From Escherichia coli (GTDB lineage Bacteria; Pseudomonadota; Gammaproteobacteria; Enterobacterales; Enterobacteriaceae), in the NCBI RefSeq assembly GCF_030013205.1, contig NZ_CP122648.1: 64,000 bases of DNA; one strand, given 5' to 3'. Below the pieces are notes generated by a model. It saw only the letters and a list, made by a program, of their open reading frames with translations, was not told the origin of the DNA and ran no database searches. Made by a program: the position numbers and the translations under genes. Each line of letters opens with the position of its first letter. Position 1 is the first letter of the stretch. Positions 20,278-20,571 of this stretch are shown here, piece after piece.

Positions 20278-20571
20278 TTAGTCCGTAACTGTTAATGTGC
20301 TATCTGGCTCTGAAAATATTAACTCATTTAATTTTTGCATGTCATTAGATGAACCAGTTATACAACCCTCGGAACAGAATCGAGGTCCTAAAGACGGACC
20401 GAAAGCGTTTAAATAACTATGTATTGAAAATCCATTACGATTATAATTTCCTGTATTAACTGACGGTACTAATCGTATGCCGTCAGGTTTTCTATTGCTT
20501 GCTCCCGGGTCATTAACATTCCAACTCCACAGGCCTTGAGGTATTGGCCCTCTATTTATAAATGTGTACAA
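20278..20571 (-). pseudogene. orphan Rhs C-terminal toxin remnant with L,D-transpeptidase-like His ... S-x-G-C motif
   Basis: 97-aa frame with no ATG (TTG only) and stop codons upstream in frame; SIHS then 18 residues then SEGCIT. Confidence 0.5.

Follow-up and report, generated by a model that had tools for sequence, protein, structure and literature searches.

A 64,000-nt stretch of Escherichia coli DNA (contig NZ_CP122648.1 of RefSeq assembly GCF_030013205.1; hereafter the window) carries on its minus strand a decayed Rhs-type toxin and immunity module, within which a 97-codon open reading frame (ORF) runs from 20571 to 20278. Read along that strand, the locus comprises nikR, a long, frameshifted rhs gene (26364->22220), IS1 (22191->21494), yibG (21363->20896; encoding a Sel1-repeat protein), an Rhs core-end fragment, the toxin region (20705->20278), an Imm57 gene, an ISAs1 (H-repeat) fragment, yhhJ and rbbA. 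A first-pass annotation had described the 97-codon frame as an orphan Rhs toxin remnant with an L,D-transpeptidase-like catalytic motif. Here we report that this remnant is very probably a pseudogenised orphan Rhs C-terminal toxin (Rhs-CT) cassette of the Tlde1/Tox-LD-peptidase family (PF10908), followed by its cognate, and also broken, Imm57 gene.

In the ORF list, the 97-aa ORF at 20278..20571 has TTG as its first codon and translates as MYTFINRGPIPQGLWSWNVNDPGASNRKPDGIRLVPSVNTGNYNRNGFSIHSYLNAFGPSLGPRFCSEGCITGSSNDMQKLNELIFSEPDSTLTVTD. The peptide on which the first-pass annotation had built its case, NGFSIHSYLNAFGPSLGPRFCSEGCITG, is present exactly in this translation, and the strand, which had been left unstated, is minus. 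The histidine and the S-x-G-C are both there, with the spacing slightly different from the 18 residues given: Ser67 lies at +16 and Cys70 at +19 from His51. Ile follows the cysteine (S67-E-G-C70-I), fitting the pattern H-x(n)-[S/T]-x-G-C-h in the window frame. The bare motif H-x(13-20)-S-x-G-C has 6 matches in the six-frame translation of the window versus 2.5 +/- 1.7 in residue shuffles; this is not statistically unusual, and the motif alone is thus a lead and not evidence. The description of the frame as decayed and lacking a start codon holds, the TTG being incidental: the true frame enters from further upstream and is interrupted at ~20558 by a 1-nt deletion, which splits the toxin domain into two frames. 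That the TTG-initiated ORF might be a genuine small gene was considered and rejected, since the homologous domain carries on beyond it in another frame and a 1-nt deletion accounts for the break.

Homologues identify the domain. A protein search with the frame-corrected domain returned close E. coli relatives as well as proteins 47-61% identical from Ralstonia, Paraburkholderia, Acidobacteria and metagenomes, most of which carry a precomputed Pfam PF10908 (Tlde1_dom) match, often plus an RHS core fragment. One E. coli allele (P0002, contig L004) retains an uninterrupted toxin frame, with RHS and Tlde1_dom matches followed by an Imm57 gene, and is named 'tlde1 domain-containing protein' in RefSeq. 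To the C-terminal part of this uninterrupted orphan Rhs-CT the 97-aa frame is 87% identical over 92 aa. The uninterrupted allele occurs at a nucleotide identity of at least 99% in 315 complete E. coli genomes (about 6%), and in strain PCN033, as WP_371736995.1, it is likewise an orphan, at the end of an rhsA-type array. In a profile search of 1.84 billion representatives, 376 relatives were recovered at an expectation value (E) <=1e-3, and in all of them the domain is C-terminal, including in proteins of 1308-1616 aa. A 1385-aa metagenomic Rhs protein (DUF6531, RHS repeats, YD-shell and RHS core) has a 182-aa Imm57 gene behind it, and a Ralstonia toxin copy has a 180-aa one. The degenerate core end with its DPLGL motif, the identity to an orphan Rhs-CT and the homologous tips of Rhs proteins of 1300-1600 aa together bear out an orphan Rhs toxin remnant.

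Pfam scans place the domain in Tlde1 and not in the housekeeping YkuD family. The uninterrupted allele matches Tlde1_dom with an E of 1.1e-7 (positions 10-106 of the 120-position model), and matches at E<=1e-3 were obtained for 10 of 11 family members (best 1e-9). The window fragment gives two weak matches, to Tlde1_dom (E 2.3e-3, model positions 63-107; weak because the fragment is truncated) and to YkuD (E 8.4e-3). With the YkuD profile (PF03734), none of the 11 members matches at E<=1e-3 and one does at E<=0.1; the domain thus has no significant match to that profile, and it carries SEGC in place of the SHGC of that family. It is related to the YkuD L,D-transpeptidases at the superfamily or fold level only. 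The 97-aa fragment returned nothing meaningful from PDB chains (one match to a clostridial toxin repeat, E 2.8, which is noise) or from NCBIfam, which has no model for the toxin or for Imm57; a HisIE match there is noise.

The fold was examined in the uninterrupted allele with a 55-sequence alignment, whose numbering (H100, S116, G118, C119 and R94) is used below. An AlphaFold2 model (predicted local distance difference test score 93.3; predicted template modelling score 0.89) adopts the predicted L,D-transpeptidase (YkuD-like) β-sandwich fold expected of a Tlde1 domain, and the top 30 Foldseek hits to the model have the same fold. Only C4, C15, G36, H100, S116, G118 and C119 are invariant across the alignment, and conservation extends to 126 homologues (H100 in 120, S116 in 124, G118 in 126, C119 in 125 and R94 in 115). 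When the 55-sequence profile was compared with PDB, the six best matches were all L,D-transpeptidases, at non-significant E-values (0.07-1.2) that we use for residue correspondence only; the alignment, also with weak E-values, sets His100 on the catalytic histidine and S-E-G-C119 on the SHGC of Enterococcus faecium Ldtfm. An 11-sequence profile searched against PDB sequences gave only spurious topoisomerase matches (E ~1). The first-pass annotation had staked the catalytic motif on a YkuD-like profile match and on retention of the His/Cys pair in intact homologues. The similarity is seen (Tlde1_dom, and weakly YkuD), and because homologues keep His in 120 and the S-x-G-C cysteine in 125 of 126 cases, the loss of the pair that it had named as grounds for giving up the motif is not found; the Tlde1_dom matches and this conservation together support the L,D-transpeptidase-like motif.

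Other residues hint at how the active site may be arranged. R94, which is Arg45 of the window ORF, would be equivalent to R115 of the Salmonella effector Tlde1a, with the same six-residue spacing to the histidine. C102 and C115 (the Tyr53 position and Cys66 in the window ORF) occur together in 115 homologues, are jointly missing from 9 and show a mixed state in 2, and are probably disulfide partners that would staple a loop; C4-C15 and C44-C50 are proposed as further disulfides. These pairings are put forward as proposals because the evidence for them is co-variation only.

The window copy itself is a dead, non-functional relic, a pseudogene of the family and not a functional member of it, with no intact, expressible coding sequence. 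We draw this from the sum of its lesions (Table 1): there is no functional Rhs core, the core end contains stops, the toxin frame is split, three residues are lost, a structural cysteine is replaced by tyrosine, and a frameshift falls within the signal peptide of the immunity gene. DNA alignment reveals that the 9-nt deletion and the 1-nt toxin frameshift are common to the window, K-12 and O157:H7. The TGT->TAT change that converts C102 to Tyr53 is private to the window among the four aligned alleles, with K-12, O157 and the uninterrupted allele all having TGT. Compared with the uninterrupted allele, the window copy is a mosaic (20300-20400 versus 20400-20700), the last ~150 nt of the toxin being almost identical and the upstream part ~88% identical, a pattern that suggests gene conversion between alleles, perhaps recent.

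The immunity gene begins 5 nt past the toxin stop codon with a signal-peptide-like N terminus (MAKLLTIVFF(F)SISASA|F). After frame correction, the protein matches the Pfam Imm57 model over its whole length (E 1.5e-44), so that the immunity-like gene with a signal peptide predicted downstream of the frame is confirmed in the reconstructed gene. A 1-nt deletion at ~20249-20250, beside a T7 run in the signal peptide, shifts the frame and is also present in K-12; the aligned O157:H7 stretch ends before this site, and RefSeq flags the O157:H7 Imm57 gene as frameshifted. The frame is lost again in a pentanucleotide repeat, the length of which varies between alleles. Once the frame is put right, the Imm57 tail can be aligned to the last 40-50 residues of the ~180-aa Imm57 proteins from Ralstonia and the metagenomic Rhs locus, two conserved cysteines among them. 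Relative to these longer proteins, the frame is lost at the repeat in all E. coli copies examined, and even the uninterrupted-toxin alleles therefore carry a shortened (131-aa) Imm57, for which the Prokaryotic Genome Annotation Pipeline flags a frameshift. The repeat may be either a slippage-prone site or simply decay. A 104-aa ORF at 19875-20189 keeps most of the Imm57 domain.

The surroundings are those of an orphan module. An Rhs core-end fragment (PxxxxDPxGL), ending in the cleavage motif DPLGL, directly precedes the variable C-terminal region; the module lies downstream of a full-length-type rhs gene (frameshifted here) and yibG; and an Imm57 gene (frameshifted here) directly follows. The degenerate core-end fragment that the first-pass annotation had placed just upstream of the frame is recovered by three-frame translation and as a RefSeq pseudogene, and at ~20706-20760 it is homologous to the core end of the main Rhs protein. 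The window is identical (100% over 1.7 kb) to the swine E. coli strain K_EC180, in which RefSeq annotates the core end as a 'RHS repeat-associated core domain-containing protein' pseudogene (internal stop; missing N-terminus) and the immunity gene as 'Imm57 family immunity protein; frameshifted; internal stop', and leaves the 20278-20705 toxin stretch between these two pseudogenes without annotation.

Table 1 Features of the toxin and immunity module in the window
Feature	Position	Strand	Basis
Decayed remnant of the Rhs core end, equivalent to K-12 yibS, carrying in-frame stops and a frameshift	20706..20862 (upper bound approximate, RefSeq pseudogene start)	-	Three-frame translation, RefSeq
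N-terminal third of the toxin domain, in another frame than the 97-aa ORF, with in-frame 9-nt deletion (SGNNGNN -> SGNN)	20559..20705	-	Aligns with residues 1-54 of the uninterrupted domain
Inactivating frameshift: uninterrupted allele TTACAAAAT, window TTA-TAAAT (1-nt deletion plus substitution creating TAA)	20555..20560	-	DNA alignments with L004, K-12 and O157:H7
97-codon frame (K-12 yibW equivalent), very probably covering the last two thirds of a Tlde1-type L,D-peptidase toxin domain	20278..20571	-	ORF, Pfam, 87% identity to the uninterrupted allele, fold of that allele
Arg45 codon, six residues ahead of His	20437..20439	-	Conserved in 115/126 homologues
His51 codon, predicted catalytic histidine	20419..20421	-	Invariant in the 55-sequence alignment; 120/126 homologues
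Tyr53 codon (TAT) in place of near-invariant Cys (TGT)	20413..20415	-	Allele alignment, homologue conservation
S67-E-G-C70, S-x-G-C motif with predicted nucleophilic cysteine	20362..20373	-	S in 124, G in 126, C in 125 of 126 homologues
Stop codon of the 97-codon frame	20278-20280	-	ORF list
Imm57 immunity pseudogene (K-12 yibV equivalent), ATG 20272-20270, Sec-type signal peptide	19750..20272	-	Pfam, RefSeq, alignments
(TTTTA)x4.6 repeat (AAAAT on the coding strand) in the 3' part of the Imm57 gene	19868..19890	.	Tandem Repeats Finder

Segments matching this one are found in 3,701 of 5,426 complete E. coli genomes (in 3,491 at an identity of at least 95%) and are always chromosomal. In K-12 the equivalents, downstream of rhsA, are the pseudogenes yibS and yibW (the latter without product or note) and yibV, annotated as protein-coding ('PF15596 family protein', 111 aa). 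They stand in the same order behind yibG as in the window and have the same 9-nt and 1-nt toxin lesions and the same signal-peptide frameshift. Unlike in K-12, the window module lies between nikR-rhs and yhhJ/rbbA and not before yibH, has an IS1 between the main rhs and yibG, and carries the private Cys->Tyr change (20413-20415) and Gly for Trp in NRGP. The lesions common to K-12, O157:H7 and the window strain are consistent with neutral persistence.

Across ~19100-27040, the yibG/yibS-W/yibV-type module, located between rhsA and yibH in K-12 and O157:H7, is found here between nikR-rhs and an H-repeat fragment with yhhJ/rbbA, an interval that we take to be the rhsB position of K-12. In the best-matching genomes, two places match the segment. 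This suggests that material has been duplicated or exchanged between the rhsA and rhsB loci. The main rhs gene is split into 1006-aa and 386-aa ORFs with an overlap of ~37 nt (23344-23380, minus strand), its C-terminal region lies at 22220-23380, and its RefSeq label is 'RHS element core protein, frameshifted'; this strain therefore lacks an active main toxin at the locus as well. The Rhs ORF of O157:H7 is intact and runs uninterrupted to yibG, which is presumed to be the immunity gene for the C-terminal region of the main rhs. The IS1 (insA/insB, with programmed frameshift; 21494-22191, minus strand) sits near the 3' end of the main rhs and removes its last ~34 codons; RefSeq lists the rhs stump beyond it as 'hypothetical protein, missing N-terminus'. 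Further downstream, a 144-aa ORF at 19141-19575 (minus strand) is the N-terminal part of an ISAs1-family (H-repeat) transposase, marked incomplete in RefSeq; fragments of such transposases commonly end Rhs elements. The rhsA-type array of PCN033 (L009, 3748-7652) is a poly-immunity island, with further orphan immunity genes (NTF2-fold immunity proteins, DUF6258, pentapeptide-repeat fragments and yibA) ahead of the Tlde1/Imm57 orphan.

The type of toxin has been described before. Tox-LD-peptidase was defined by Zhang et al. in 2012 as having an LD-peptidase fold with H, S and C residues, in association with RHS repeats, T6SS (type VI secretion system) and Imm16/Imm57 in β- and γ-proteobacteria (PMC3482391). 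The window has the same predicted architecture, including the Imm57 neighbour, and differs only in being a decayed orphan and not the tip of a full-length toxin; the homologues from E. coli, Ralstonia and Paraburkholderia are in line with the reported β-/γ-proteobacterial range. For DUF2778/Tlde1, L,D-carboxypeptidase activity has been reported, with H121 and C131 essential, and Rhs-DUF2778 fusions are found mainly in one subfamily, in 11% of genomes carrying that subfamily, with Imm57 cited explicitly (bioRxiv 10.1101/2020.02.18.954545). In the Tlde1a structure, R115 binds the D-amino-acid carboxylate and G130 precedes C131 (PMC9638812). Beyond these two Tlde1 papers and Zhang et al. 2012, the literature on yibW/yibV/yibS and Tlde1b/c yielded nothing relevant.

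Like Tlde1a (Tae5-STM, STM14_0336; Salmonella Typhimurium; immunity protein Tldi1, DUF2195), the uninterrupted allele belongs to PF10908, has the His and Gly-Cys elements, with an Arg at the same six-residue distance ahead of the His, and encodes what would be a periplasm-acting toxin paired with a signal-peptide-bearing immunity protein. It departs from Tlde1a in sequence (~19% identity), in the His-Cys spacing (19, YkuD-like, versus 10, with an extra loop bracketed by the two co-varying cysteines), in a Cys-rich N-terminal extension (LAxCxYSI...C...SGNN...CKNNPxC), in being an Rhs fusion and not standalone, and in pairing with Imm57 and not DUF2195; the window copy is, moreover, a pseudogene. 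Housekeeping YkuD enzymes (PF03734; LdtMt2, Ldtfm, Csd6, Pgp2 and DpaA) differ in having His, where this family has Glu, Ala or Asn, before Gly-Cys; the toxin domain also lacks peptidoglycan-binding or accessory domains and would serve as a secreted toxin and not in maturation of the cell's own wall.

On the basis of Tlde1a and general Rhs biology, we propose that in an intact member the ~146-aa domain would form the C-terminal tip of a T6SS-delivered Rhs protein, to be freed by autocleavage at the DPxGL core end and to act in the periplasm of the target cell. There, within the L,D-transpeptidase β-sandwich, Cys119 of the S-x-G-C would serve as nucleophile, with His100 as general base, and attack the bond between meso-diaminopimelate and D-alanine (mDAP3-D-Ala4) in tetrapeptide stems. 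The outcome would be L,D-carboxypeptidase activity and/or D-amino-acid exchange, as in Salmonella Tlde1a, with depletion of cross-linking substrates and lysis, from which the Sec-exported Imm57 would shield the producer and its kin. The YkuD-length His-Cys spacer with its co-varying Cys pair, the Cys-rich N-terminal extension and SEGC in place of SHGC raise the further idea, to us a doubtful one, that the Imm57-paired, Rhs-borne branch is a mechanistically distinct Tlde1-type subfamily, the bond specificity of which could for these reasons differ from that of Tlde1a. If so, the branch might detach Braun lipoprotein, like DpaA, or act purely as a carboxypeptidase, like Csd6/Pgp2.

Several points weigh against the assignment and the mechanism attached to it. 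For the fragment itself, sequence support is weak (Pfam E ~1e-3, and no NCBIfam or PDB sequence match), and the fold support is a predicted model of the uninterrupted allele and not of the window copy. The Rhs context is the only ground for expecting delivery by the T6SS; for the substrate bond, and for the choice between carboxypeptidase and exchange activity, the model is Tlde1a, at only ~19% identity; and the searchable literature yielded no biochemical test of any Imm57-paired, Rhs-borne, long-spacer member. One could go further and see in the frame a chance open frame in decayed intergenic DNA with a coincidental His...SxGC: the bare motif is common (6 matches versus 2.5 expected), RefSeq has no gene over 20278-20571 in the identical strain K_EC180, and the TTG start has no obvious ribosome-binding site upstream when read by eye. 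However, 87% identity over 92 aa to a conserved domain with 376 representatives at E<=1e-3, and near-invariance of the motif residues in 126 homologues, refute this reading, to which we attach practically no credence. A Cys/His peptidoglycan hydrolase of another fold (an NlpC/P60- or papain-like Tae amidase, or a Tox-Caspase) that mimics the YkuD motif is hardly more credible, set beside the modelled β-sandwich and its Foldseek neighbours; in its favour are the modest Pfam E-values, the frequency of Cys/His dyads in T6SS amidases and the occurrence of Imm57 also beside Tox-Caspase toxins in γ-proteobacteria (Zhang et al., PMC3482391).

The remnant might also still matter to the cell, as a silent reservoir recombining into the main rhs or through an Imm57 fragment that protects against foreign Tlde1-type Rhs toxins. 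In Salmonella, orphan Rhs toxins are said, in work of Koskiniemi and colleagues from 2014, to recombine into the main rhs and so switch the toxin type. The core-end homology that would permit such recombination is present, near-identity over the final ~150 nt of the toxin may point to a recent gene conversion, K-12 annotates the downstream immunity part as protein-coding (yibV, 111 aa, PF15596), and the 104-aa ORF retains most of Imm57. Yet the toxin lesions (frameshift, 9-nt deletion and Cys->Tyr) would come along in any recombination, leaving no active toxin; the immunity ORF after the frameshift has no signal peptide, and its product would therefore not reach the periplasm, the predicted site of the toxin; and the same toxin lesions in K-12, O157:H7 and the window strain fit neutral persistence. 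We consider a continuing role improbable, and retain the reading of a pseudogenised Tlde1-type Rhs-CT cassette with its broken Imm57 gene.

This type of module is already known, given that RefSeq and Pfam label the uninterrupted allele, K-12 lists the locus as pseudogenes and the Rhs/LD-peptidase/Imm57 combination has been published; what the locus holds is a pseudogene from an established toxin class, ordinary and shared by many strains. Its value is mainly one of annotation, and for 20278-20705 and yibW alike we suggest the label 'Tlde1-type (Tox-LD-peptidase) Rhs-CT pseudogene, cognate to the Imm57 gene yibV'. The locus is also an example of an orphan toxin/immunity cassette that persists as it decays, with identical lesions in K-12, O157:H7 and the window strain, and the uninterrupted sister allele, carried by ~6% of complete E. 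coli genomes, would be a convenient entry to the biochemistry of Rhs-borne, Imm57-neutralised L,D-peptidases.
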